A stretch of 64,000 bases of DNA, taken from NCBI GenBank assembly GCA_963728205.1, contig CAVSIV010000006.1:1728001-1792000 (forward strand), written 5' to 3'. Positions 20,801 to 37,645 of the stretch are shown here, one piece after another; position 1 is the stretch's first letter, and every line of letters begins with the position of its first letter. Below the pieces are notes generated by a model. It saw only the letters and a list, made by a program, of their open reading frames with translations. It did not search any database and had not been told where the DNA came from. The translations under genes and the position numbers were made by a program. Origin of the DNA: an uncultured Chloroflexia bacterium (GTDB lineage: Bacteria > Chloroflexota > Dehalococcoidia > UBA2979).

Positions 20801-23563
20801 TCTCGTATCCGCTGACGGACCGGGCGCGCGCTCACGCGACCGCGCCACAGGACTCCGCCGAGTACGCGCGCCACGCGACCGAGGTTCGCGCGGCGGCCGA
20901 GCGGTTCGTACGTGACATCGCCCCGCTTGACGAGGACTTCGACGTCGCCAGGACGACGTGGGGAGCGTGGGACGAGGCCCCATTGGCCGGCCTGCAGGAA
21001 TGGGCTGAAGATTTTTCCGAGCACGCGACGTCCGCTGCGGACTGGGTCGAGCACCGCTCAGCGGTGGCCGACCTCGAGCAGGAGTTCGGGCCGGGTGTGG
21101 TCGATTGCATCCGGACAGCAACCGCGGACTCGGCGCAGGTTCCAGGGATTGTCGAGCGGCGGCTGTTCGCAGCATGGCTCGATCACGCTCGCCACGAGGG
21201 CGAGCCGATCCTCGGCGACTTCACCGCCAGGGATCAGGAGGACGTCCGGCGCGCCTTCCGGGCGCTCGACCAGGTATTCGTTCGAGGCCGCGCGCTGGCG
21301 AGTGCGCGAGCGATGCTTCGTCGCCTACCCGGACCGCTACTCGACGAGCACAGGAGCGGGACAACTCGGGACGCTGCGCTCCGAACTCCCAAGCGGCGCC
21401 GGCGAATGCCGGTCAGGAGGCTGTTCCGGCGGGTACCGGGGCTCATGCAGGCACTCAAGCCATGCTTCCTCATGAGCCCGCTTGCGGTGAGCCAGTACCT
21501 CCCGCACGGCCAGCTGGCGACCGAGACCATGGAGTTCGGCGTCGTCATCTTCGACGAGGCCTCGCAGGTCTTACTCGAGGACGCCGTCCCCGCGCTCGCG
21601 CGAGCGAAGTACGCCATCGTTGCCGGCGACACGAAACAGTTGCCGCCGACGAACTTCTTCCGTCGCACACAGGCCGACGACGACGGTCCGGTCGACGACG
21701 ACGAGGACGAAGACGAGGACGGCTTCACGGGTCGCGAAAGCATCCTCGACGTGATGGTCGGCATGGCCGGTCGGAACGTCGCCGAGCAGTACCTGACCGT
21801 CCACTACCGGAGCAAGCACGAGAGCCTCATCCGGTACTCAAACCACTACTTCTACGAGGATCGCCTGCTCGATGTTCCTGGCGCCCGTGCGCGACGGCAG
21901 CGACAGCCACGTCGGGATCAAGGACGTCGATCCGCCAGATGCGCGGTACGACGCCGGTGCGTCCAAGACGAACAGGGGCGAAGCCGAGGAAGTCGTTGAG
22001 CGCGTATTCGCCCTCATGCGCTCTCGCCCGGAGGGCGAGAGCGTCGGAGTCGTCGCGCTATCCGGGCGCAGGCGGACTACATCGAACGCATGGTCGAGGA
22101 ACGCCGTCTCGAGGAACTGGATCTCGACGAGCGTTTCGCCGAGGACCGGCACGAACGGTTCTTCGTGAAGAACCTCGAGAACGTCCAGGGCGACGAGCGC
22201 GACCACATCATCCTGAGTTGTTGGGGTACGGGCCCTACCGTGGGGTCGGGGGCCGTGCCCAATCCGCTCGGTCCCATCAATTCTGCCGGGCGGACTAGCG
22301 CCGGCTCAACGTCGCTGTGAGCCGCGCCCGCTTGAAGCATGACCGTCGTGCACTCGCCCGCGTCGGAGGACATCGTGGCTCAGAGCGAGGGAGTCAAGGG
22401 TTGCTCCGCCGGTACCTGGAGTACGTGCGCAACCCGGCCCCGGCGCGTCTTCGAGGCGGAGGTCACCGTCGACCGCGCGGCGGAGCCCGAGTCGCCCTTC
22501 GAGGAAGAAGTGCGCCGCGCGCGCTCGAGGGACGCGGCTATCGCGTCGATTCCGCAGGTGGGGGTTTCCGGGTACCGGATTGACCTTGGCATCGCGTCCG
22601 AGGAGCGGGACACGGTACGACCTCGGCATCGAGTGCGACGGCGCGACGTATCACCGCGCACCGGCCGCGCGAGACCGGGACCGCCAGCGGCAGCAGGTGC
22701 TGGAGGGGCTGGGCTGGCGGATCGACCGCGTCTGGTCAACCGCCTGGGCGCGCAATGCAGACGGCGAGATTGCGGCGCTCGAGCGCGCCATCGCCGATGC
22801 GCGAGCCGGTACGCCCAACGAACCGGTCCCCCCGGGGGGCGGTGGCGGGAAGGGGCCGAACCTTCAAGTGGTTCCGATAAGCCCCGATGACCGGGAGGCG
22901 CGCTTTACCGTCGTGCCGCCACCCGACTCGTCTGCGGAGGAGCCGGCTCCATTGTTCGACGAATACGACGAGGCGTCGCTGTCCGACATCCGGGTCGGGC
23001 CGGAGCTCCGCTACGAAGTCGAGCCGACGATGACCGCGCTCATCCGGCGAGTGGTCGAGGTGGAGCAACCGGTGCACGTGGACCTCGTTGTTGAGCGCAT
23101 TTGCGACCGGTATCGGCTACACCGTGCCGGCTCTGCGATACGCGAGCGCGTCGAACGCGGCGTCCGGGAAGCAGTCAAGGCCGGCGTCGTAGCGCGCGAT
23201 GGGGCCGGACCGCAGAGCGCGTTCCTCCGTCTCCCGGCGGCCGACGGGGCGCCACCGCGTCGGCCCTCGAAACGGACCACCCGGACGATTGACCACATCG
23301 CAAACAGTGAGTTGGACACGGCCCTGTTGCTGGTGGCGTCGGAGGTGTTCGGCGCGGAGAAGGGCGAACTCATCGTCGAGACGGCACGTGAGTTGGGGTT
23401 CGACCGGACAGGTGCGCGGATTGAGCATCGGCTGAGGCAGGCGATCGACAGGCTGGTGAAGCAAGGCCGCTTGCGCCAGCAGTTCGACACCCTGGTAGCC
23501 GTTGCAGCTTCTTCGCAGGTGCGACCTGACGGGGAATCGTACGAAGAGGGCGTTGTTGGCTAG
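17804..23563 (+). CDS. DUF4011 - SF1 helicase - Vsr-like nuclease - DUF3320 protein (Hhe-like anti-phage protein); many frameshifts
   Basis: WQEKLLQLDRRN, EEQGLNVLFLAVG, DADFSQ, KKVLFVSEKTAALDVV, KPCFLMSPLAVSQYL, IFDEASQV, GDTKQLPPT, HYRSKHESLI, KNLENVQGDERD, ESPFEEEV, IECDGATYH, RDRDRQRQ..LEGLGW, VEVEQPVH, TARELGFDRTG in shifting frames. Confidence 0.85.
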
Positions 23564-25295: not shown

Positions 25296-27274
25296 ATGGA
25301 CGCGAGCGAACTAGGCTGGATCACCAACTACATCTGGGGCATCGCTGACGATGTCCTTCGCGACCTCTACGTCCGCGGCAAGTATCGCGACGTGATCCTG
25401 CCCATGACCGTGCTCGCCGGCTCGACGCCGTCCTCGAACCGACGAAGGGTGCCGTGCTGAGCATGAAACGGTCGCTGGACGCGCGGCATCACGAACCAGG
25501 ACGGGCCCTGCGTCAGGCAGCTGGCCAGGCGTTCTACAACACCTCTCCGTTCACCCTCCGAGACCTCCGCTCCCGCGCCAGCCAGCAGCAGCTGCGTGCG
25601 GACTTCGAGGCGTACCTCGACGGGTACTCCTCGAACGTGCAGGACATCCTCGAGAACTTCGAGTTCCGCAACCGGATCCCTCGCCTCTCGATGGGGCGGA
25701 CGCGCTCGGGACGCTGATCGAGAAGCTGCTGTCACCTGGCATCAACCTGAGTCCGAATCCGGTCCTGAACGGCGATGGCTCCGCGAAGCACCCTGGCCTC
25801 GACAACCATGCGATGGGGACGATTTTCGAAGAGCTGTTGCGTCGCTTCAACGAGGAGAACAACGAGGAGGCCGGCGAGCACTGGACGCCGCGCGATGCGG
25901 TGAAGTTGATGGCGAACCTGATCTTCCTCCCGGTCGCCGACGCGATCGAGTCCGGCACGTACCTCCTCTACGACGGGGCCTGCGGCACGGGTGGCATGCT
26001 GACCGTTGCCGAGGAGACGCTGCAGGAGCTGGCGGGACAGCACGGCAAGGAGGTCTTCCACCCACCTCTACGGGCAAGAGATCAACGCGGAAACCTACGC
26101 GATCTGCAAAGCGGACCTGCTCCTGAAGGGAGAGGGCGACGCCGCCGACAACATCGTCGGGGGCCAGAGCATTCGACGCTTTCCAACGACGCCTTCCCGT
26201 CACGTGAGTTCGACTTCATGCTCAGCAACCCGCCCTACGGAAAGAGCTGGAAGAGCGACCAGGAGCGCATGGGCGGCAAGTCCGGGATGCGCGACCTGCG
26301 CTTCGTCATCGAGCATGCCGGCGATCCCGAGTACTCGCTCGTCACCCGCTCGAGCGACGGGCAGATGCTGTTCCTCGCCAACATGCTGAGCAAGATGAAG
26401 CACGGCACACCGATGGAGTCGCATCGCCGAGGTCCACAACGGGAGCTCGCTCTTCACCGGCGACGCCGGGCAGGGCGAGAGCAACATCCGCCGCTGGATC
26501 ATCGAGAACGACTGGCTCGAGGCGATCCTCGCGCTGCCGTTGAACATGTTCTACAACACCGGCATCGCCACCTACGTCTGGGTGCTCAGCAACCGCAAGC
26601 CGGCCGACCGCGCCGGCCGCGTGCAGCTCATCGACGCGACCCAGTGGTACACGCCACTGCGAAAGAACCTGGGCAAGAAGAACTGCGAGCTGTCCGAGGC
26701 GGACATCCGGCGCGTCTGCGAGACGTTCCTGGCCTTCGAGGAGACCGAGCAGTCGAAGATCTTCCCCAACGCCGCCTTCGGCTACGAGAAGGTGACAGTG
26801 GAGCGCCCGCTGCGACTGCGCGGCGTCGAGGGCGGGCGTGTCTATTCCGCGAAGGAACTAAAGGTGCTCAAGGAGTCGGCGGGGCGCGACGACGACGCCC
26901 CCCGCTGATCAAGAAGGTGCACAAGCGTGTCGCGGCGCAAGACCCGATCCGAGGGCTGTTCGAGGCGACGGTCGATGGCAAGCCCGCCGTCGTGGAGTAC
27001 GAGCCGGACACTGACCTGCGCGACACCGAACAGGTGCCGCTGCTGGAGGAGGGTGGCATCGAGGCGTTTCTCCGCCGCGAGGTGCTGCCGTACGCCCCCG
27101 ACGCCTGGATGGGACGGCAGCGTGAAGATCGGCTACGAGGTCAGCTTCACGCGGTACTTCTACAAGCCGCCGCCGCTGCGCTCGCTGGAGGCAATCCGCG
27201 CCGACATCGTCGCGCTTGAGAGCGAGACTGAAGGGTTGCTGAAGGAGACTGATCGAAGCGGAGCTGCGCGATGA
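25296..27274 (+). CDS. hsdM: type I R-M N6-adenine methyltransferase subunit; several frameshifts
   Basis: ITNYIWGIADDVLRD, GKYRDVILPMTVL, EAGEHWTPRDAV, YDGACGTGGML (motif I), MLSNPPYG (motif IV), FYNTGIATY, KIGYEVSFTRYFY. Confidence 0.93.
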
Positions 27275-29090
27275 AAGCGATCCACGGGAAGGCGAAGAGC
27301 GTTCGGCAGCTTCTTCAGGGCGTGAAGTACTCCATCGACTACTACCAGCGCGAGTACCGGTGGAGGCCAAGCAGGTTCGCGAGCTCGTCAACGACCTCAG
27401 CGGCACGTTCCTCGAGGAGTACCAGCCCGGACTCAGCCGGACCAAGGTCGCCGATTTCCCCACTACTTTCTCGGCTCGATCATCATTAGCCAGAAGGGCA
27501 GCGAGATTTTCGTCGTGGACGGCCAGCAGCGACTCACGAGCCTGACCTTGATGCTGATCTCCTGCGTAACCTCCAGGGGGATCGTCCCGAGCGGTGAACA
27601 TCGACGAACTCATCTTCTCGGAGCGATACGGGCAGAAGACGTTCAACCTCGCGGTCGATGAACCGCCCTGTGTATGGAAGCCCTGTTCGACAGCGACGCG
27701 TTCGATCCATCCGACCAGACCGAATCGGTGCAGAACCTATACGCGGACCAGGATCTGACTCGAGAAGCTCCCGAGGAACTTCGAGAAGCTGCCCTCCCTT
27801 ACTTCGTGGACTGGGTCATCGACAACGTCCACCTCGTCGAGATCACGGCGTACTCGGACGACGACGCCTACAAGATCTTCGAGACTATGAACGACCGAGG
27901 TCTGTCACTCAGCCCAACCGACATGCTGAAGGGCTACCTGCTCGCCAACATGGAATCGCAGCGACGCGTCCCCGCGAACGAGCTATGGCGCGGGCGCCTG
28001 CTCCAGACTCAATGAGTGGGGCGATGACTCCGATGCCGACTTCTTCAAGGCGTGGCTTCGGAGTCAGTACGCGACGCGATCCGAGAGCGCAAGCGCGGCG
28101 CGGTCCCTGAGGATTTCGACCGTATTGGCACGGAATTCCATCGCTGGCTCCGGGAGGCGAGCCTTCGATCGGCCTCAATCAGCCGGACGACTTCTTCCGC
28201 TTCCTCCAGCGTGACTTCGACTTCTACAGCAAGCAGTACCTGCGCATCGCGGAGGCCGAGATGGAGCCCGTGGAGGGGCTTGAGCACCTGATGTACGTGT
28301 TCGACCACGGCTTCACGCTGCACTACATGCTGCTGCTCGCTCCGCTACGCCCCGAGGACTCCGAGGATGTCGTCACGGTGAAGCTCGGGCTCGTCGGACG
28401 TTTCACCGATACACTTCTGGCATGGCGAATCTGGAACTGGCGATCGATCGCGTACTCGACCATGCAGTACGCGATGTTCCTTGTGATGCGCGAGATTCGA
28501 GGGTTAGAGCCGGTGGCGCTGGCTCAGAAGCTCCACGGCCTCCTGAGCGTGAGCCCGAGACGTTCGCGACCAACAACCGGCTGCGGATGCACCAGCAGAA
28601 TCGCTACGCCCTTCACCGCCTATTGGCGCGAATGACCGACTACGTCGAGACGCAGTCAGGGCAGGCCTCGCGCTACCCGGAATACGTGGCGTCTGGGAAG
28701 GATCGCTACGAGGTGGAGCACATCTGGGCCGACCACTTCGATCAGCACCGCGATGAGTTTTCGCATGAAGCGGACTTTGCGGAGCATCGGAACCGCATCG
28801 GTGGGCTGCTGCTGCTGCCGAAGTCGTTCAACGCGTCATACGGGGACTTGCGATACGAGAAGAAGCTCCCACATTACAATACGCAGAACCTGCTCGCGCG
28901 GTCGCTGCATCCACAGGCATACGATCACAACCCAGGTTTCCTGCAGTTCATCAAGGCCAGTGGTCTCCCCTTCCACCCCTACGAGCACTTCAAGCAGGCG
29001 GACATCGAAGAGCGCGCCGAGCTCTATCGGCGGCTCGCCGAGCGCATCTGGAACCCCGACGACCTGTTGCGGGAGGTCGAGGCGCTCTGA
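27271..29090 (+). CDS. GmrSD-family (DUF262 + DUF1524) modification-dependent restriction nuclease; several frameshifts
   Basis: YSIDYYQREYRW, VVDGQQRLTSL, IFETMNDRGLSL (DUF262); YEVEHIW, NRIGGLLLLPKSFNASYG (DUF1524 HNH). Confidence 0.88.
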
Positions 29091-29161
29091 TGCTTACCCA
29101 CCTCCCTCCCTACGCCGCCTACCGCGACACCGGGCTGAGCTCGGCCGGGGAGGCACTCTGA
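29090..29161 (+). pseudogene. 23-codon remnant/duplicate of the hsdS 5' end (MLTHLPPYAAYRDTGLSSAGEAL)
   Basis: First ~45 nt nearly identical to 30876-30920 (MLTHLSPYRAYRDSG); coupled by TGATG overlaps to the genes on both sides. Confidence 0.75.
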
Positions 29162-30199
29162 TGCCGACTCGTCAGGAACTCCTCGCCTCTATTCCCACTA
29201 CGACTGCCGACTACCGCGCGGGTGAACTCCCCGCGCCGACGCCCGGAGCACGTAGATCGCTGGGTCGGGCAGTTTCCGACTGACGTGCAGGAGGCGATGC
29301 TCGGCGAGATCGATCACGTCCTCAAGAGCACATACTTCAGCCGTGCTCGCGCCCAGCAGTATCTGACGAGCCTCATCTCTACCGAGGGGATCGCTGGTCT
29401 CGATCCTGCGGCGTTCTGGGTCAACGTGACTTGTCTCGATGGTCAGGCTCACGGATCTTCGCAGCGTGAACTCGTCGCGACGTTCACCAAGCTGCTTCGG
29501 GACGCCTTCGGGATCGAGATCACCGATCCTGTCATCAACCCACGGGTGTTCTTGTATCTCGATGACGCAATCTTTAGCGGCGACACCCTTCGCCGCGACC
29601 TGCGGTCGTGGATTGAGAACGATGCACCCGCGATGGCAAGCGTTCACGTTGTGGTGTTCACCCTCCACACCGGATTCTGGTACGCCAGGAAGCGGATCGG
29701 GGATGCGATACAGGCGTCCGGGAAGCAGATCACAGTCACCTACTGGCGCGCACAGGAGGTGAAGAACAAACGGGATGAGCGACGTGACGCAGGCGTTCTG
29801 TGGCCTTGGGAGATACCCGATGAGGAGGTCGTTCAGAACTACGTTGGAGGTCTTCAGCACGCGGTGACACTCAGGCCGCTAGGTGGCGATCTCGGCCCCT
29901 TCTCTTCGGAGGGCGGTCGCCAGCTACTGGAGAGGGAGTTCACGATCGCTGGTGCACGGATCCGCTCGGCCTATCAAGACCCCAGCGACATCCTCCGTCC
30001 GCTCGGATACAGCCGCTTTGGACTTGGCTTCGGCTCGATGACGGTGACCTATCGCAACTGTCCGAACAACGCCCCACTTGCACTCTGGTGGGGCAACGCG
30101 GGTGGAGTCGGACCCGCCCACTTCAACAACTGGTACCCGCTCGTCCCCAGAAAGGTGCATCAGCAGAATCCGGGAGGCCTTTATGCCTTCTCCGTCTGA
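29161..30199 (+). CDS. phosphoribosyltransferase-like protein (conflict-system PRTase type); one indel near 29,243
   Basis: PRPP-binding-loop pattern FLYLDDAIFSGDTL; N-term TTADYRAGE..PEHVDRWVGQF; C-term PLGY...GFG...YRNCPNNAPLALWWG...WYPLVPRK. Confidence 0.75.
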
Positions 30200-32312
30200 C
30201 CAGACCCAGCTCCGCACCTACGACCGTGCCGCCAGCGTTGTCTTCCGCAAGACGAACGAGGAGTTCGGCGGGCTGTCCAACATGGCAGCGGGGTTCCCGC
30301 TGGAGGTAAACGGGCTCGCGATCCGCACGGCCGAGGCGCTGTACCAGGCGTGCCGGTTCCCCCACCGATCTGAGCTCCAACGCCACATCGTCGACCAGCG
30401 CAGCCCGATGACGGCGAAGATGGTCGGGAAGCCGCACCGTCACGACTCCCGCCGCGACTGGGATCGCGTGCGAGTGGCCGTCATGCGCTGGACGCTGCGC
30501 GTGAAGCTCGCACAGAACTGGAGCGCGTTCGGTGAGTTGCTGCTCGCCAGCGGCGAACGACCGATCGTCGAGGACTCCCGGCGCGACGACTTCTGGGGAG
30601 CAAAGCAGGTCGATAGCCAGACCCTTACTGGCATGAACGTGCTTGGGCGACTGCTGATGGAGCTCCGCGAGGACCTCCGCGATCGCGGCACGGCGCTGCT
30701 CACCGTCGAACCACCGGCCATCGGAGATTTCCTGCTCGATGGACAGCCGATCGAGGCCATCCGTGGCGCCGAGGCGCGTCTACGGCCCGGCCTCGAAGAC
30801 CACCGCGTGGACGAAGTGCGCCAGCCCTCGCTGTTTCACGACCAGCCCCTCGCTGAACCAGAGGAGCTCAGCCGGATGCTTACCCACCTCTCTCCCTACC
30901 GCGCCTACCGCGACTCGGGCGTCCCTTGGCTGGACGATGTCCCCGAGCACTGGGAGGTACTGCCGGCGCTGGCGGCGTACCAGCCGAAACTCGTCCGCAA
31001 TGTCGGAATCATGGAGAGTAGGGTGCTCTCGCTGAGTTACGGACGGATCGTCGTGCGCCCGCTGGAGAAGCTCCGAGGGCTCGTGCCAGAGTCGTTCGAG
31101 ACGTATCAGATGGTCGATCCCGGGAACATCATCGTCCGGACAACTGACCTACAGAACGATCAGACGAGCCTGCGGGTCGGGATCGCACGGGACCGAGGAA
31201 TCATCACTTCGGCTTACCTCTGTCTCACCACAACCGGCCGCATGTCGCCTGAGTTCGGCTACCAGTTCCTGAACGCGTATGACCTCCTCAAGATCATCTA
31301 CGGCTACGGGTCTGGACTCAGACAGAACCTCAGCTTCATAGAAATCAAGCGGATGCCAGTTCTCGTTCCACCCCCGGAGGAACAAGCCGCCATCGTGCGC
31401 TTCCTTGACTACGCCGACCGGCGCATCCGGCGGTACGTGCTCGCGAAGCGGCGGCTGATCGCGCTCCTCGAGGAGCAGAAGCAGGCGATCATCCATCGCG
31501 CCGTCACGCGCGGCCTCGACCCGGACGTGCGGCTGAAGCCGTCCGGCGTGGAGTGGCTGGGGGACATCCCGGAGCGCTGGGAGGCTGTCCCGTTCAAGAG
31601 CAGGATCGCGTTCCAAGAGGGTCCGGGGATCATGGCCTCGGAGTTCCGCGACGACGGAGTGCCGCTGCTTCGCATCTCGTGTCTTCGAGGTGACAGTGCG
31701 ACGCTCGACGGCTGCAACTACCTGGATCCTGAGTCCGTGAGTCGGCGTTGGAGTCACTTTGCGGTAAAGCCTGACGACTACCTTCTAACTTCGAGCGGCA
31801 GCCTTGGATCTGTTTCGCAAGCTAACGAGGAAGTCGCCGGTGCGATCCCGTACACAGGGATCATCCGACTGTGGCCGAAGTTGCCTGCAGGCGTTCACAT
31901 GGATTTCGTGCGCTACTTCCTGGTCTCTGAACTCTTCGCTGCGCAGATCCGTTTCATGAAGACAGGTGTCGGGATCGAGCATTTCGGCCCCACTCATCTG
32001 AGCCGAATGCTGATCCTGTGCCCACCGCCGGATGAACAGCTGGCGATAACCCGATGGATCGAGGAAGGCAGCGCCCCGCTCGACAACTCGATTCGAAATG
32101 CGAGGGCTGCTATGGGCTTCGCTGCCGAATACCGCACTCGCCTGATCGCCGATGTCGTCACCGGGAAGCTCGACGTGCGCGAGGCAGCCGCGCGGCTGCC
32201 GGAGGAGACGGACGAGCCGGAGCCGCTCGATGACCTTGACCTACCGGACGAAGAGCTGGATGCCCTCGACGCCGACGAGGTGGAGGCTGAACTGGCGGAG
32301 GCGATGACGTGA
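30183..32312 (+). CDS. hsdS: NADAR (YbiA-like) domain read in frame into type I specificity subunit HsdS (HsdS portion starts at ATG 30876)
   Basis: NADAR: FGGLSNM, EALYQACRF, SPMTAK, DWDRVRVAVMR, KLAQN, IVEDSRRDDFWG, GMNVLGRLLMELR. HsdS: YRDSGVPWLDDVPEHW, PPPEEQAAIVRFLD, LKPSGVEWLGDIPERW, PPPDEQLAI, EYRTRLIADVVTGKLDVR. Confidence 0.9.
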   Translation: MPSPSDQTQLRTYDRAASVVFRKTNEEFGGLSNMAAGFPLEVNGLAIRTAEALYQACRFPHRSELQRHIVDQRSPMTAKMVGKPHRHDSRRDWDRVRVAVMRWTLRVKLAQNWSAFGELLLASGERPIVEDSRRDDFWGAKQVDSQTLTGMNVLGRLLMELREDLRDRGTALLTVEPPAIGDFLLDGQPIEAIRGAEARLRPGLEDHRVDEVRQPSLFHDQPLAEPEELSRMLTHLSPYRAYRDSGVPWLDDVPEHWEVLPALAAYQPKLVRNVGIMESRVLSLSYGRIVVRPLEKLRGLVPESFETYQMVDPGNIIVRTTDLQNDQTSLRVGIARDRGIITSAYLCLTTTGRMSPEFGYQFLNAYDLLKIIYGYGSGLRQNLSFIEIKRMPVLVPPPEEQAAIVRFLDYADRRIRRYVLAKRRLIALLEEQKQAIIHRAVTRGLDPDVRLKPSGVEWLGDIPERWEAVPFKSRIAFQEGPGIMASEFRDDGVPLLRISCLRGDSATLDGCNYLDPESVSRRWSHFAVKPDDYLLTSSGSLGSVSQANEEVAGAIPYTGIIRLWPKLPAGVHMDFVRYFLVSELFAAQIRFMKTGVGIEHFGPTHLSRMLILCPPPDEQLAITRWIEEGSAPLDNSIRNARAAMGFAAEYRTRLIADVVTGKLDVREAAARLPEETDEPEPLDDLDLPDEELDALDADEVEAELAEAMT

Positions 32313-35268
32313 CCTCGGATACCAGCGAGCGCGGGCTGGAGGCGCTCATCGTCGCCTCGATGACCGCCGCCGGGCAGTCGGGCGGCGGCTGGGTCGCCGG
32401 TGAACCCCACGACTACGACCGCGAATACAGCGTCGACCTCGTGCAACTCGCCGCCTTTCTCGAGGCCACGCAGCCGGAGGTCGCCGAATCGCTCGCGCTC
32501 GCAGAAGACGGCCCCACGCGTCGCGCCTTCCTCGCGCGGCTGCAGGGCGAGATCACGAAGCGCGGCACCATCGACGTGCTGCGCCACGGCATCAAGCACG
32601 GTCCGCACCAGGTCGACCTCTTCTACGGGACGCCCTCGGAGGGCAACGTGCGCGCGCAGGAGCGCTACACCGCCAACCGTTTCTCCGTCACTCGCCAGTT
32701 CCGCTACAGCCGGGACGAGACGCAGCGCTCGCTCGATCTCGGGCTCTTCATCAACGGGCTCCCCATCGCCACCTTCGAGCTGAAGAACAGCCTCACGAAG
32801 CAGACCGTCGAGGACGCGATCGAGCAGTACAAGCGCGACCGCGATCCCCGGGAGAGGCTGTTTGAGTTCGGGCGCTGCGTCGTGCACCTTGCCGTGGACG
32901 ACAAGGAGGTCTGGTTCTGCACTCACCTCCGCGGGAAGGCGTCGTGGTTCCTTCCCTTTAACCAGGGCTGGAACGACGGCGCCGGCAATCCGCCGAACCC
33001 GTACGGCCTCATGACCGACTACCTGTGGCGGCGCATTCTCACGCCGCGCAGCCTCACTGACATTCTCGAGAACTACGCGCAGGTCGTGGAAACGAAAGAC
33101 GACAAGACCGGCCGCAAGCGCTCCACACAGATCTGGCCTCGCTACCAGCAGCTAGACGTGGTGCGGAAGCTGCTCGCGGACGCGAGCTCGCGCGGCGCTG
33201 GACACCGCTACCTGATCCAGCACTCCGCAGGGAGCGGGAAGTCGAATTCGATCGCGTGGCTCGCCCATCAGTTGATCGGGCTGAAGCAGGGCAACGCCGA
33301 TCTCTTCGATTCGATCATCGTGGTGACCGACCGTCGCATCCTCGACCAGCAGATCCGCGACACCATCAAGCAGTACGCGCAGGTGCGCTCGACCGTCGGG
33401 CACGCCGAACGCTCGGGCGACCTCCGCGGGTTCATCGCCGAGGGCAAGAAGATCATCATCACCACGGTGCAGAAGTTCCCGGTGCTTCTCGATGATATCG
33501 GGAGCGAGCACCGCGGCCGGCGCTTCGCCCTGATCATCGACGAGGCGCACTCGAGCCAAGGCGGGCAGACCTCGGCGGCCGTCTCGCGCGTGCTCTCGGC
33601 GGTCGAGGCGGATGACGATGACGAGACGGTCGAGGACGAGATCAACCGCCTCATGGAAGCGAAGAAGCTCCTGCCCAACGCGAGCTACTTCGCCTTCACG
33701 GCGACCCCGAAGAACAAGACCCTCGAGATCTTTGGCAGCCCCGAGCCCCAGCCAGACGGCTCAGTGCGCCATCGCCCGTTCCACAGCTACACCATGAAGC
33801 AGGCCATCGACGAGGGCTTCATCCTCGACGTCCTGAAGTACTACACCCCGGTCGACAGCTACTACCGGCTCGTGAAGACGATTGACACCGACCCCGAGTT
33901 CGACACGAGGCGCGCCACCCGCAAGCTGCGGCGCTATGTCGAAAGCCACGACGTGGCGATCCGGCTCAAGGCCGAGATCATGGTCGACCACTTCCACGAC
34001 CGGGTGATCGGCCTTCGCAAGATCGACGGCCAGGCGCGCGCCATGGTCGTCGCCAGCGGCATCGAGCGCGCGATTCAGTACTACCGAGCGATCAGCGCAT
34101 ACCTGGCAGAGCGAAAGAGCCCGTACCGGGCGATCGTCGCCTTTTCGGGCGAGCACGAGTTTGCCGGAGAGAGGGTGACCGAGGCGAAGCTGAATGGATT
34201 TCCATCCAACAAGATCGCCGACAAGATCGAGGAAGACCCGTACCGGTTCCTCGTGTGCGCCGACAAGTTCCAGACCGGGTATGACGAGCCGCTCCTCCAC
34301 ACGATGTACGTGGACAAGATGCTCTCCGGCGTGAAGGCTGTGCAGACGCTGTCTCGCCTGAACCGCGCTCATCCCAAGAAGCACGACGTGTTCGTGCTCG
34401 ACTTCATGAACGATGTCGATACCATCCAGAAGTCGTTCGAACCGTACTATCGGACGACCATCCTGTCCGCCGAAACCGATCCGAACAAGCTCCACGACCT
34501 CAAGGCCGATCTCGACGGCTTCGAGGTCTACTCAGAAGCCGACGTCGAGGCGTTCGTCCACAGCTACCTCAGCGGCGCGGATCGAGACCAGCTCGATCCC
34601 GTCCTCGACGCGTGCCGCGGCCGCTATATCGAAGATCTGACGAAGACGGCCAGGTGCAGTTCAAGGGAAGCGCGAAAACGTTCCTGCGGACGTACGGGTT
34701 CCTCTCATCAATTCTTCCCTACATGAACGCCCAGTGGGAGCAGCTTTCTATCTTCCTGAACTTCCTCGTGCCGAAGCTGCCGGCGCCGGTCGAGGAGGAC
34801 TTCTCGAAGGGCATTCTCGACACGATTGACATGGACAGCTATCGGGTCGAGAAGCAGGCCGCGCGCGCCATCCGACTACGGGATGAAGATGCCGAGATCA
34901 ACCCGGTGCCCGCAGGACACGTTGGGGCCCACCCCGAGCCAGAGCTCGACCACCTCTCGAATATCCTTCAGAGCTTCAACGAGCACTTCGGGAACATCGA
35001 GTGGGCCGATTCCGACCGGATCGAACAACTGATCACCGTGGACATCCCTCAGCGCGTGGAAGCTGACGTTGCCTACCGCAACGCGCAGGAGCACTCCGAC
35101 GAGCAGAACGCTCGCATCGAGCATGACAAGGCGCTCATGAGAGTGATGACCGCAGTCATGCAAGACGACACGGAGCTCTTCAAGCAGTTTGCAGACAACG
35201 AGTCGTTCCGCCGATGGATGACGGACACGGTGTTCCGTCTGACCTACGATGGACCGCCGGCGGCATAG
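32309..35268 (+). CDS. hsdR: type I R-M restriction subunit, frameshift near 34,640
   Basis: DLGLFINGLPIATFELKN (nuclease), QHSAGSGKSNSI (Walker A), IIDEAHSSQ, FTATPKNKT, KFQTGYDEP, VQTLSRLNR. Confidence 0.95.
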
Positions 35269-35459: not shown

Positions 35460-37645
35460 TCAACCAGCATTCGCAGTCGCTCCGGGAGTCGCTTCTTCGT
35501 CCAGGAGTGCTCCCTCATCGACCCGTGCGCGCGTGTCTGCGACTGCAGACTCGAGCTCGATGGTCGCAGGCTGGAACAAATCGCCCGTGCGCAGGAAGAG
35601 CAGCTCGTCGTCGGGGGGGCTTCCCGTCGCCTGTCGCAGCGCGCCCGCGTATAGGGCGAGCTGCGGCAGGTACGGAGCCGCCACCTCGGCGAGCGACCGC
35701 CCGGCGACGTCGTCCGTCTTGAAGTCGATGATGTGCCACCGGCCGCCTCGCTCGTAGGCGAGGTCGATCGTGCCGTGGACGGGCACGCCGTCCCAGTGCC
35801 ACGAGAACGGCCACTCGAAGTGCGCGCGCGTCTCCGGGTCGCGCAGCGTCGCCGCGAGCGGGCTCGCTTCGAATCGAATCGAGCATCTCGCCGACCTCGG
35901 CGGCGATGCGCTCGATCGCGGCGTCCGCGATCTGCGGGTCGAGCGAGCGTGCCAGCGCGGCGAGAATCCGGGCGCGTGCCGGTCGTGAACCGCAGCTCGA
36001 TGGCGCGGTGCGCGAGGCTGCCGCGGAGCAGGGCGAGGCCGTCGCCGTGGCCGCCGAACCATCGCGACTCCTCGGGGGCGCGGAGGGCGGTCACCGGCGT
36101 GCTCGATCGCAGCGGGATCACGGGCGGCCGCGCGACCAGCGGGGGCACGAACTCCTGCTCCTCGGCCGCCGGCGGCGGCGCGACCGGGCGCGGAGCGGGG
36201 CGTCGCGCGATCGCGTCGAGGTCCACGGGCAGCGCGGGGCGAACGTCGATGCCGGCCGTCGCGCTCGCGGCGAGCGCGTCGAGCGCGAGCGCGAGCCAGC
36301 CGTGCTCGCCGCGTCCCGACTCGTCGCCGCTCAGGTAGAGCGCGTCGGCCGCCCGCGTCGCCGCGACGTAGAAGAGGCGCCGGTGCTCGGCGACCTCCTC
36401 GACGTGATCGCGCGCGAGCAGGTGCGCGTAGAAGCCGGGGCGGCGACGGCCCGTCTCCTCCGCGTCCTGCTCGGCGGTCAGCGTGAGCGAGATGCCGTCC
36501 TCGGTGCGCCAGCGCACCGCCTCGTAGCTGTCGCGCGGCGGCAGGTGGGCTTCCGGCACGAACACGACCGGGAACTCGAGCCCCTTCGCGCCGTGGATGC
36601 GTGAGGAGGCGGACCGCGTCGGAGTCGTCGAGGACCGCCTGTCCCTCGCGCGCCTCGAGCTCGTCGCGGCGGCGGCGCACGTAGGCGACGACCTCGTCGA
36701 GCGAGCGCCCCGCGAGCGTGCGGGCGATCGCCACGAACTTGCGGATGTTCGCGAGCGCCTGGTCGCCACCCGGGAGCGGCGCCCAGGCCGCCTCGAACGC
36801 GGTCAGGCCGAGCGCGCGTTCGAGCAGCGCGTCGGCGGGGACGGTCGCGGCGTCCTCGCGCAGCGCGTCGAGCACGACGGCGGCGTGGCGGCACCGTGCT
36901 CGCACGTCGTCGGGCAGCGCCGGCGGCGGCTCGCGGAGTGCCGGCAGCCAGCCGCGCGGCTCGTCGCGGAGGGCGAGCAGCGTCGCGTCGTCGAGCATGA
37001 AGAGCGGCGAGCGGAGCGCGCCCACCAGCGCGATGGCGTCGTCGGGCTCCGCGAGCCAGCCGAGGAGGTTCGCCAGGTCCAGCACCTCCTGGCGCGTGAA
37101 GAAGCCGGCGCCGGCGGGCGTCCGGTAGGCGACGCCGCGCGCCTCGAGGGCCTGCTCGAAGAGGTGCACGTTCGAGAGCCGGCGCAGCAGGATCGCGACG
37201 TCGCGCGGCCGCGCCGGGCGGTAGGTGGCGGCGTCGCGGTCCCAGACGGGCTGGCCCGCGTCGAGCAGCGCGGCGATCTCCGCCGCGACGGCGTCGGCCT
37301 CGACGCGCCGCCGGTCGTGGTCGGTCGTGGTGTCGCCCGCCGGCGTCCTCGTCTCCGATCGGCTGGATCGTGAGGTGCGGCGCGGGGGGTGAGGCGGCGC
37401 CGCGGCCGGTCATCGGCTGCATGGGCGCCTCGAACTCCTCGTGCGCCGTCGCCGAGCACCGCCGTGAAGAGGTCGTTCAGGATCGCGACCAGCGGGTCGT
37501 GCGCGCGGAACGAGCGGCTGAGCGGGTGACGCCGCCGCCCGTGCCGCCTCGATCTCGAGGTGGAGGCGGCGGAAGTGGCGCACGTCGCTGCCGCGGAAGC
37601 GGTAGATCGCCTGCTTCGCGTCGCCGGCGAGGAAGAGGTGCGGTC
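35460..37645 (-). CDS. addA: AddA/UvrD-like ATP-dependent helicase with C-terminal PD-(D/E)xK nuclease; 5' half missing; frameshifts
   Basis: LFLAGDAKQAIYRFRGSDV (III), HGAKGLEFPVVFV (V), EHRRLFYVAATRAAD (VI), VHGTIDL...IIDFKTD...QLALYA (RecB-like nuclease); motifs I and II absent. Confidence 0.8.

Follow-up and report, generated by a model that had tools for sequence, protein, structure and literature searches.

A DS-32-type phosphoribosyltransferase and NADAR cassette joined in frame to the DNA-recognition subunits of restriction systems

A type I restriction-modification (R-M) operon was analysed within a 64,000-nucleotide stretch of a Chloroflexota genome (GenBank assembly GCA_963728205.1, contig CAVSIV010000006.1, positions 1,728,001 to 1,792,000; this whole stretch is the window, and is numbered from its first letter). 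The operon contains a gene for a phosphoribosyltransferase (PRTase), followed by a NADAR domain that shares one reading frame, without a stop, with a full HsdS specificity subunit bearing two target recognition domains (TRDs). The PRTase and NADAR are a known pair, the anti-phage system DS-32; what is new, relative to the literature found, is their fusion to HsdS or to HmaB and their embedding in R-M or Hma operons. As judged from sequence comparison, two unrelated restriction systems have the same cassette attached, by the C-terminus of its NADAR, to the subunit that reads or methylates DNA.

Both window proteins exceeded the cut-offs of the NCBIfam equivalog models for DS-32. The PRTase scored 331.1 bits against NF053875 (DS32_1_antiphage, the DS-32A equivalog; cut-off 250) and 330.8 bits for the DS-32A model in a genome-wide profile search; the NADAR scored 263.6 bits against NF053876 (DS32_2_antiphage, the DS-32B equivalog; cut-off 240), across positions 1–181 of the 181 in the model. 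A first-pass annotation, made from the sequence alone, had taken the two for a functional pair in phage defence, with which these scores agree. It had also regarded the pair as undescribed; this does not hold, since PRTase plus NADAR is DS-32, described in the text of the DefensePredictor study as a two-gene anti-phage system (PRTase, DS-32A; NADAR, DS-32B) validated in Escherichia coli as free-standing genes (DeWeirdt et al., bioRxiv 10.1101/2025.01.08.631726; Science 2026, PMC13092281). The window resembles that system in having PRTase and then NADAR, adjacent and co-oriented, but differs in that the NADAR of DS-32 is free-standing (about 180–250 aa) while here it is the N-terminal domain of a 709-aa fusion inside an hsd operon.

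The PRTase matched Pfam PF24390 (PRTase-CE) at 1e-44. Its start was placed at ATG 29161, where the N-terminus lies in another frame from the remainder of the gene and matches the intact proteins of loci L040 and L154; the latter, the nearest relative, has the same N-terminus in intact form. A start at GTG 29222 was rejected. The loop for binding phosphoribosyl pyrophosphate (PRPP), noted from the first in this protein, was invariant among 60 PRTase homologues, including its Asp-Asp and Gly residues, as was the retron-type motif G-x14-PNNxP. An AlphaFold2 (AF2) model of the PRTase had a predicted local distance difference test score (pLDDT) of 91; when compared with the PDB by Foldseek, it matched only a generic type I PRTase core, the best match being xanthine-guanine phosphoribosyltransferase (XGPRT; E = 9e-4, TM score 0.46 on the target). 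As a clue to substrate, the modelled fold suggests 'purine-PRTase-like' and nothing finer.

The NADAR matched the Pfam domain of that name at 4.8e-26, the first 225 residues of the fusion frame matching, and the nearest solved structure was E. coli YbiA (2b3w; E = 8.4e-18). This part of the AF2 model had pLDDT above 90. Positions aligned to E43, K50 (Arg here), W89, R93, E125, D130 and W133 of the solved NADAR are kept, and residues of this set, which includes both catalytic and ADP-ribose-binding positions, were invariant or nearly so among 69 fusions, with full invariance at the positions of E43, K50, W89, E125 and W133. The Glu at the E125 position assigns the domain to the YbiA subtype. 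It also passed a model for riboflavin-intermediate N-glycosidases, at 74.6 against 73.7 bits; the substrates of these enzymes are N-ribosyl-5-phosphates. From their conserved active sites, both the PRTase and the NADAR look active.

The HsdS moiety matched the PADLOC model Specificity_I (6.7e-88) over model positions 3–444 of 448, corresponding to residues 271–705 of a 744-aa open reading frame (ORF). The earlier observation that NADAR reads without a stop into a complete two-TRD HsdS was upheld. In the AF2 model of the fusion, the two HsdS helices occupy residues 398–443 and 616–659, and alignments of 21 and 69 homologues showed that these helices and the NADAR are conserved, while the TRDs are variable. 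Between the two confidently modelled domains, residues 201–226 had pLDDT below 50, and this linker is predicted to be a flexible tether. It varies in length (45–80 aa) and sequence among homologues, and within this otherwise variable, disordered segment there is a motif, Q-x-S-L-F, at fusion residues 214–218 (about 30822–30836). The motif was present in 78/101 HsdS-fused linkers, 4/11 stand-alone tails and 2/30 HmaB fusions, whereas 3% of shuffled tails had it; possibly it serves as a docking peptide. A predicted complex of the PRTase with NADAR residues 1–195, in which the tail with Q-x-S-L-F was left out, scored 0.00 against a mark of 0.32, a score that weighs neither for nor against an interaction. 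The C-terminal tail of NADAR carrying this motif may be the likeliest candidate for docking. Because a Met at the start of HsdS within the fusion was found in just two of 21 aligned fusions, it would seem that most cells with the fusion make HsdS only in the NADAR-bearing form.

A protein search with the 709-aa frame, in which the best 120 clusters were considered, returned 101 clusters carrying NADAR and 19 of plain HsdS; all but two of the former (99/101) were 625–745 aa in length, at 38–75% identity. A scan of one genome per species produced 545 confirmed matches, and the locus counts given here cover the best 80 of these 545. They came from the Alpha-, Beta- and Gammaproteobacteria, Planctomycetota, Verrucomicrobia, Acidobacteria, Chloroflexi, Desulfobacterota, Myxococcota, Latescibacterota, Spirochaetia, Deinococcales and others, and included cultured isolates. 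A single NADAR-HsdS frame of 660–765 aa was present in 74 of the 80 loci; three of the remaining six were cut by contig ends and three were shorter (L053, L094 and L113). The PRTase ended no more than 200 nt upstream of the fusion in 76 of the 77 loci with enough flank (L051 being the exception), hsdM lay upstream in 69/69 and hsdR downstream in 52/54 (not in L082 or L113). The PRTase stop and the NADAR start overlapped by 1, 4 or 17 nt in homologues, the window having 17. In its cleanest form, for example L040, the arrangement consisted of four coupled genes, hsdM-PRTase-NADAR::hsdS-hsdR. Such a survey had been set beforehand as one test of the first-pass proposal; the linkage of PRTase and NADAR to hsd genes proved to be recurrent and NADAR-HsdS single polypeptides to be widespread. 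Chance read-through or an assembly indel was rejected as the cause of the fusion, given that the architecture is common to homologues, and on this comparative evidence the NADAR-HsdS fusion is real and appears to be selected.

Other architectures were found when the best 150 NADAR clusters were sorted by length: 64 were below 310 aa, 53 were 310–599 aa, 30 were 600–899 aa and three exceeded 1000 aa. The three longest representatives were NADAR fused to a DUF1156 DNA methylase (Pfam). A metagenome scan with one NADAR-methylase protein as query gave no confirmed locus; with an alignment of long NADAR-methylases as query there were 532 matches, of which the best 80 were sorted. Thirty-one loci were NADAR::DUF1156-methylase fusions, all continuous, with the PRTase directly upstream in each of the 27 with enough flank, and 24 were NADAR::HsdS fusions, again all continuous, with the PRTase directly upstream in 23/23. 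Every fusion in this sample was thereby in frame (55/55). Stand-alone NADARs accounted for nine loci (PRTase directly upstream in 8/8), 15 loci were too short to tell (13/13), and one was without a NADAR match. The methylase operon was identified as Hma by PADLOC (HmaA, 2.4e-167; HmaB, 4.2e-97; HmaC, 4.5e-93), in which HmaA is a helicase, HmaB the DUF1156 methylase and HmaC a DUF499 ATPase (loci L117–L148). HmaB has the NADAR as an N-terminal fusion, and the operon has the order HmaA-PRTase-NADAR::HmaB-(352 aa)-HmaC, for example at L145:3563-15540. The pair borne by Hma also scores as DS-32 (418.8 and 274.3 bits, NCBIfam). Two further proteins of about 540 aa (P0211 and P0236) were PRTase-CE::NADAR single chains according to Pfam. 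In addition, a NADAR at L166:8001-12110 was joined to a partner of about 1200 aa that lacked a Pfam match, and P0226 combined DUF488 with NADAR.

In more than 100 loci from many phyla, the subunit that reads DNA in one or the other of two unrelated restriction systems is covalently tied to a validated defence pair. Since the same arrangement recurs in more than 100 loci of other bacteria, it suggests that two immune layers are wired together. The genes concerned, encoding HsdS (~700 aa) and HmaB (~1250 aa) and named only 'S subunit' or 'NADAR domain protein', represent composite defence proteins. They offer a genetic handle on the triggers of DS-32 and of retron-type PRTase effectors, and on the question of whether restriction complexes act as infection sensors or as guarded targets.

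The reading preferred here, to which a probability of roughly 45% was assigned, is that the PRTase is an effector, that NADAR is its antidote or partner, and that the state of the methylase core gates the pair, in a manner like that of PrrC-EcoprrI. The PRTase would arrest growth by using PRPP, either depleting it or phosphoribosylating a purine-like acceptor, and NADAR would hydrolyse the N-ribosyl-phosphate product, restrain the PRTase, or both. Through the fusion, NADAR would be a covalent part of the DNA-reading methylase core (M2S1). This core tells modified from unmodified DNA and is the target of phage DNA mimics, that is, anti-restriction proteins of the Ocr and ArdA types. Because NADAR is joined to a DNA-reading core that anti-restriction proteins block, the state of that core, whether blocked or engaged on unmodified DNA, may gate the PRTase; where restriction fails, the cell would then have a second, abortive line of defence.

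To our knowledge, crosstalk between restriction and an abortive or metabolic back-up is known in very few cases, of which PrrC is the classic. In PrrC-EcoprrI, the restriction complex keeps an anticodon nuclease latent until an anti-restriction factor of the phage releases it. The window family resembles PrrC in that an effector gene is nested among hsd genes. It differs in having as its effector a PRTase-CE, which is neither an anticodon nuclease nor a member of the PrrC family, in the presence of a second enzyme, NADAR, and in that coupling is covalent, through the HsdS fusion, while that of PrrC is non-covalent. The text of Payne et al. (bioRxiv 10.1101/2024.01.29.577857) describes PrrC as almost always embedded in type I R-M systems and reports embedded genes in Hma, BREX, DISARM and type I R-M systems; one of its multi-gene candidates includes NADAR, according to a figure legend. 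This 'guilt by embedding' has the same genomic logic as the present module, which also occurs inside Hma operons.

The comparison with DarTG1 concerns NADAR. The text of Schuller et al. (2023, PMC11543638) describes NADAR as a proven antitoxin in DarTG1, where it removes ADP-ribose from guanine in DNA, and most NADARs as free-standing. Both systems pair a NADAR N-glycosidase with a transferase that forms an N-glycosidic bond, and both have a role in phage defence. They differ in that the partner here is a PRPP-dependent PRTase rather than an NAD-dependent ADP-ribosyltransferase, with no DarT partner beside the NADAR, and in that the window NADAR is of the YbiA (Glu) subtype while DarT1-associated NADARs are of the Asp type. 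In the text of PMC13092281, the authors of DS-32 suggested that it might be a toxin-antitoxin pair in which, compared with DarT-NADAR, the partner has been swapped. The PRTase has the same Pfam family (PRTase-CE), PRPP loop and G-x14-PNNxP motif as the effector of type III-A retrons (Retron-Eco11); the motif is described as typical of retron PRTase effectors, and activation of the Retron-Eco11 effector as lowering PRPP by about half, in the text of PMC12746101. Unlike in those retrons, the partner of the PRTase here is a NADAR fused to HsdS. Neither a reverse transcriptase nor an ncRNA partner adjoins the PRTase, whose neighbours are the GmrSD gene and stub on one side and NADAR-HsdS on the other, with all operon ORFs assigned (RNA was not searched).

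The literature search found neither a NADAR-HsdS or NADAR-HmaB fusion nor a PRTase plus NADAR inside R-M or Hma operons; the supplementary tables of two key papers, which might list them, lay outside that search. The text of the DefensePredictor preprint, exclusive of its supplements, does not contain 'type I restriction' or 'HsdS'. Similarly, neither 'PRTase' nor 'phosphoribosyl' occurs in the text of Payne et al., where both uses of 'fused' refer to other proteins, the supplementary tables again being outside the search. PADLOC has no model for the module, its matches to PDC-M42C (32 bits), which is its nearest model and stems from the guilt-by-embedding study, and, for the PRTase, to PRTase_III-A both being weak.

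Several observations weigh against control of the pair by the restriction complex. DS-32B exceeded the cut-off in three of 400 other genomes from the phylum of the window, in frames of 179–273 aa (one cut by a contig end), and in two of 400 genomes from the phylum of L104 (Amaricoccus), both unfused. All five of these other DS-32B matches, which came from random samples of about 400 genomes per phylum, lacked a fusion or were truncated; the fused form is thus the minority form of a rare system. Stand-alone pairs without hsd genes nearby were found at L032 and L033, on a Methylobacterium plasmid and in a Klebsiella record, and stand-alone DS-32 defends E. coli without any R-M partner being stated in the text of PMC13092281. 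Coupling to R-M is therefore not required for DS-32 to function. A FastTree phylogeny of 163 NADAR domains showed the labels for HsdS and HmaB to be clustered (0/500 shuffles needed as few changes), yet neither formed a single clade; strong local support forced at least seven and at least three changes respectively, in a tree of a short domain with local support rather than bootstrap values. These changes are a sign that the cassette has switched context more than once, which fits a portable cassette whose fusions are possibly a by-product of tight gene packing. Lastly, four genes of the window copy contain frameshifts.

The main rival to gating, considered rather unlikely, holds that the pair and the R-M system are co-resident and independent: the fusion would provide co-transcription, fixed stoichiometry and co-inheritance, and the pair would respond to its own trigger, just like its stand-alone counterpart, without R-M control. 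It is a serious option because the stand-alone form works, and the several context switches of NADAR agree with it. Furthermore, the same operon backbone holds many unfused defence genes (DarT/Macro, McrBC, AAA_21, NACHT-like, Schlafen-like and GmrSD), and guilt by embedding in type I R-M is a known pattern from the text of bioRxiv 10.1101/2024.01.29.577857. However, NADAR alone was fused among the embedded genes examined; it was fused, behind a PRTase, to HsdS and to HmaB of two unrelated systems, in frame in every metagenome fusion; and the linker is retained at 45–80 aa rather than being minimal.

A second alternative, judged improbable, dispenses with the antidote. Here, PRTase and NADAR would be co-effectors that together hydrolyse PRPP, the PRTase joining phosphoribose to an acceptor and NADAR releasing ribose-5-phosphate and regenerating the acceptor, and the restriction core would only switch the pair on. 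PRPP depletion by the related retron PRTase (text of PMC12746101), the conservation of both active sites, and the PRTase::NADAR single chains, which suit sequential enzymes, are in its favour; the toxin-antitoxin-like interpretation in the DefensePredictor text, made by analogy with DarT1-NADAR, and the proven antitoxin role of NADAR in DarTG1 (text of PMC11543638) argue for an antidote instead.

It was also considered, and likewise thought to be of low probability, that the locus is a dead remnant in this genome, its frameshifts being real and its operon non-working; this is compatible with any of the other readings. Over about 10 kb, the operon shows 13 or more frame changes, 11 of them in hsdM and the GmrSD gene. 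Alignment placed five in hsdM, with switches at about 25415, 25687, 26417, 26899 and 27119 (tblastn with the intact HsdM of L035 and L040), and three-frame reading suggested two more; the GmrSD gene had at least four, the PRTase had one, where a run of G near 29245 is one base too long, and hsdR had one near 34630. The NADAR-HsdS frame had none. Against decay, the pieces that match intact homologues are free of in-frame stops and retain 74–86% identity to them, and the PRTase shift is a single base in a homopolymer. Moreover, essential genes elsewhere in the assembly are also broken: rpoB (G000:C6:1072371-1075962) is spread over at least three frames with two in-frame TGA codons, and secA (G000:C6:978630-980898) has a C-terminal frame shift, while uvrA is whole. 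The assembly reaches 89% completeness in only six contigs. Because rpoB and secA are broken as well, the window frameshifts are probably assembly indels rather than signs of decay; the assembly seems to be rich in indel errors, and frame-shifted genes anywhere in the window are not to be taken as pseudogenes.

The least credible alternative is a writer and eraser, along the lines of the second model of the first-pass annotation, in which the PRTase phosphoribosylates DNA bases and the NADAR borne by HsdS or HmaB strips the mark at recognition sites in host or phage DNA: both fusion partners are DNA-recognising or DNA-modifying subunits, NADARs remove ADP-ribose from guanine in DNA (text of PMC11543638) and purine PRTases (XGPRT) are the closest matches to the PRTase core, but the literature search found no report of a type I PRTase that acts on DNA, the target of the related retron effector is the PRPP pool (text of PMC12746101), the NADAR, with Glu at the E125 position, belongs to the small-molecule YbiA subtype, and stand-alone DS-32 has no DNA-targeting part. 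If true, it would provide a second, non-methyl mark of self and non-self on R-M and the first nucleic-acid phosphoribosylation system.

The components of the operon are listed in Table 1. They form one co-oriented string in the ORF map, between 25.3 and 35.3 kb of the window.

Table 1. Genes and protein domains of the window operon, with window coordinates.
Feature	Position	Strand	Evidence
hsdM, type I methylase subunit	25296..27274	+	Pfam N6_Mtase; 74-86% identity to intact HsdM of L035, L040
GmrSD-type (DUF262/DUF1524) type IV restriction enzyme gene	27271..29090	+	Pfam GmrSD_C, GmrSD_N
hsdS-like stub, 23 codons	29090..29161	+	
PRTase, DS-32A-type (Pfam PRTase-CE)	29161..30199	+	
NADAR::HsdS, 709 aa from ATG	30183..32312	+	
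NADAR domain, DS-32B-type, fusion residues about 6-195	30183..30770	+	
Disordered linker, fusion residues 201-226	30783..30860	+	
HsdS moiety: two TRDs, two long conserved helices and acidic tail	30861..32312	+	
hsdR, type I restriction/translocase subunit	32309..35268	+	Pfam HSDR_N, ResIII, SWI2_SNF2, T1R_D3-like

The gene order given in the first-pass annotation, hsdM-GmrSD-stub-PRTase-NADAR(-HsdS)-hsdR on one strand with overlapping stops and starts, was confirmed by the coordinates of the junctions, since stop and start overlap at every one. The TGA of the GmrSD gene (29088–90) overlaps the ATG of the stub at 29090, and the TGA of the stub (29159–61) overlaps the ATG of the PRTase; the TGA of the PRTase (30197–99) lies 17 nt inside the NADAR frame, which begins with ATG at 30183, and the TGA of the fusion (32310–12) overlaps the GTG of hsdR at 32309. 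All three type I R-M subunits, HsdM, a two-TRD HsdS and HsdR, are represented in this one operon (Pfam, PADLOC). By tblastn, hsdR has 75% identity over two frames to the intact 1011-aa HsdR of L040, and the GmrSD gene, which is situated between hsdM and the PRTase, has 46–74% identity in four frames to the intact GmrSD of L049 and L112. The operon block has a G+C content of 60–65%, compared with 70–77% in its flanks, and ends ~1.5 kb before a tRNA-Ser gene at 36763–36839; given the lower G+C and the nearby tRNA gene, the block fits an acquired island. Adjoining this island, an ORF at 22580–23560 contains REase_MTES_1575 and DUF3320 domains and is probably the end of a large helicase-type gene. 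Further upstream, to about 12800, there are many frame changes on the + strand.

The first 46 nt of the hsdS-like stub duplicate the start of the HsdS moiety (29089–29135 against 30875–30920; 42/46 identical). This local alignment scored 67, whereas 100 shuffles reached 27 at most and 74 other loci no more than 32. The stub is bracketed by a 14-nt repeat carrying the overlapping stop and start (29079–29163). The stub was rejected as a conserved feature, as only the window has it, and it is missing from both the 74 other loci and the nearest relative, L154. It resembles the scar of a recombination event in which the GmrSD slot was swapped with an hsdM-GmrSD-hsdS operon.

Among the homologous hsd loci, two slots flanking the cassette varied in content. 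The slot between hsdM and the PRTase was under 100 nt in 47/72 loci, and in about 24 of the 72 it was occupied by a gene of about 600 aa; this gene was of GmrSD type in all four cases examined, as judged by Pfam for L054 and L154 and by homology for L049 and L112. Genes of this type, from several lineages, adjoin the DS-32 PRTase, in hsd loci, in one Hma locus (L148:3762-5453) and in one stand-alone locus, where the gene is on the opposite strand (L032:6408-8219). The slot between the fusion and hsdR measured 110 nt or less in 37/71 loci and elsewhere held unfused genes of defence type. Its contents included DarT with a Macro protein, IrrE/HTH with Macro, McrBC, AAA_21 ATPases, a 1564-aa NACHT-like protein and a Schlafen-like protein (L112:11362-13115, L089:10271-13958, L114:12414-13739, L039:10694-13582, L098:10310-15001 and L043:10247-11728). 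DarT occurred only as a separate insert, in L112.

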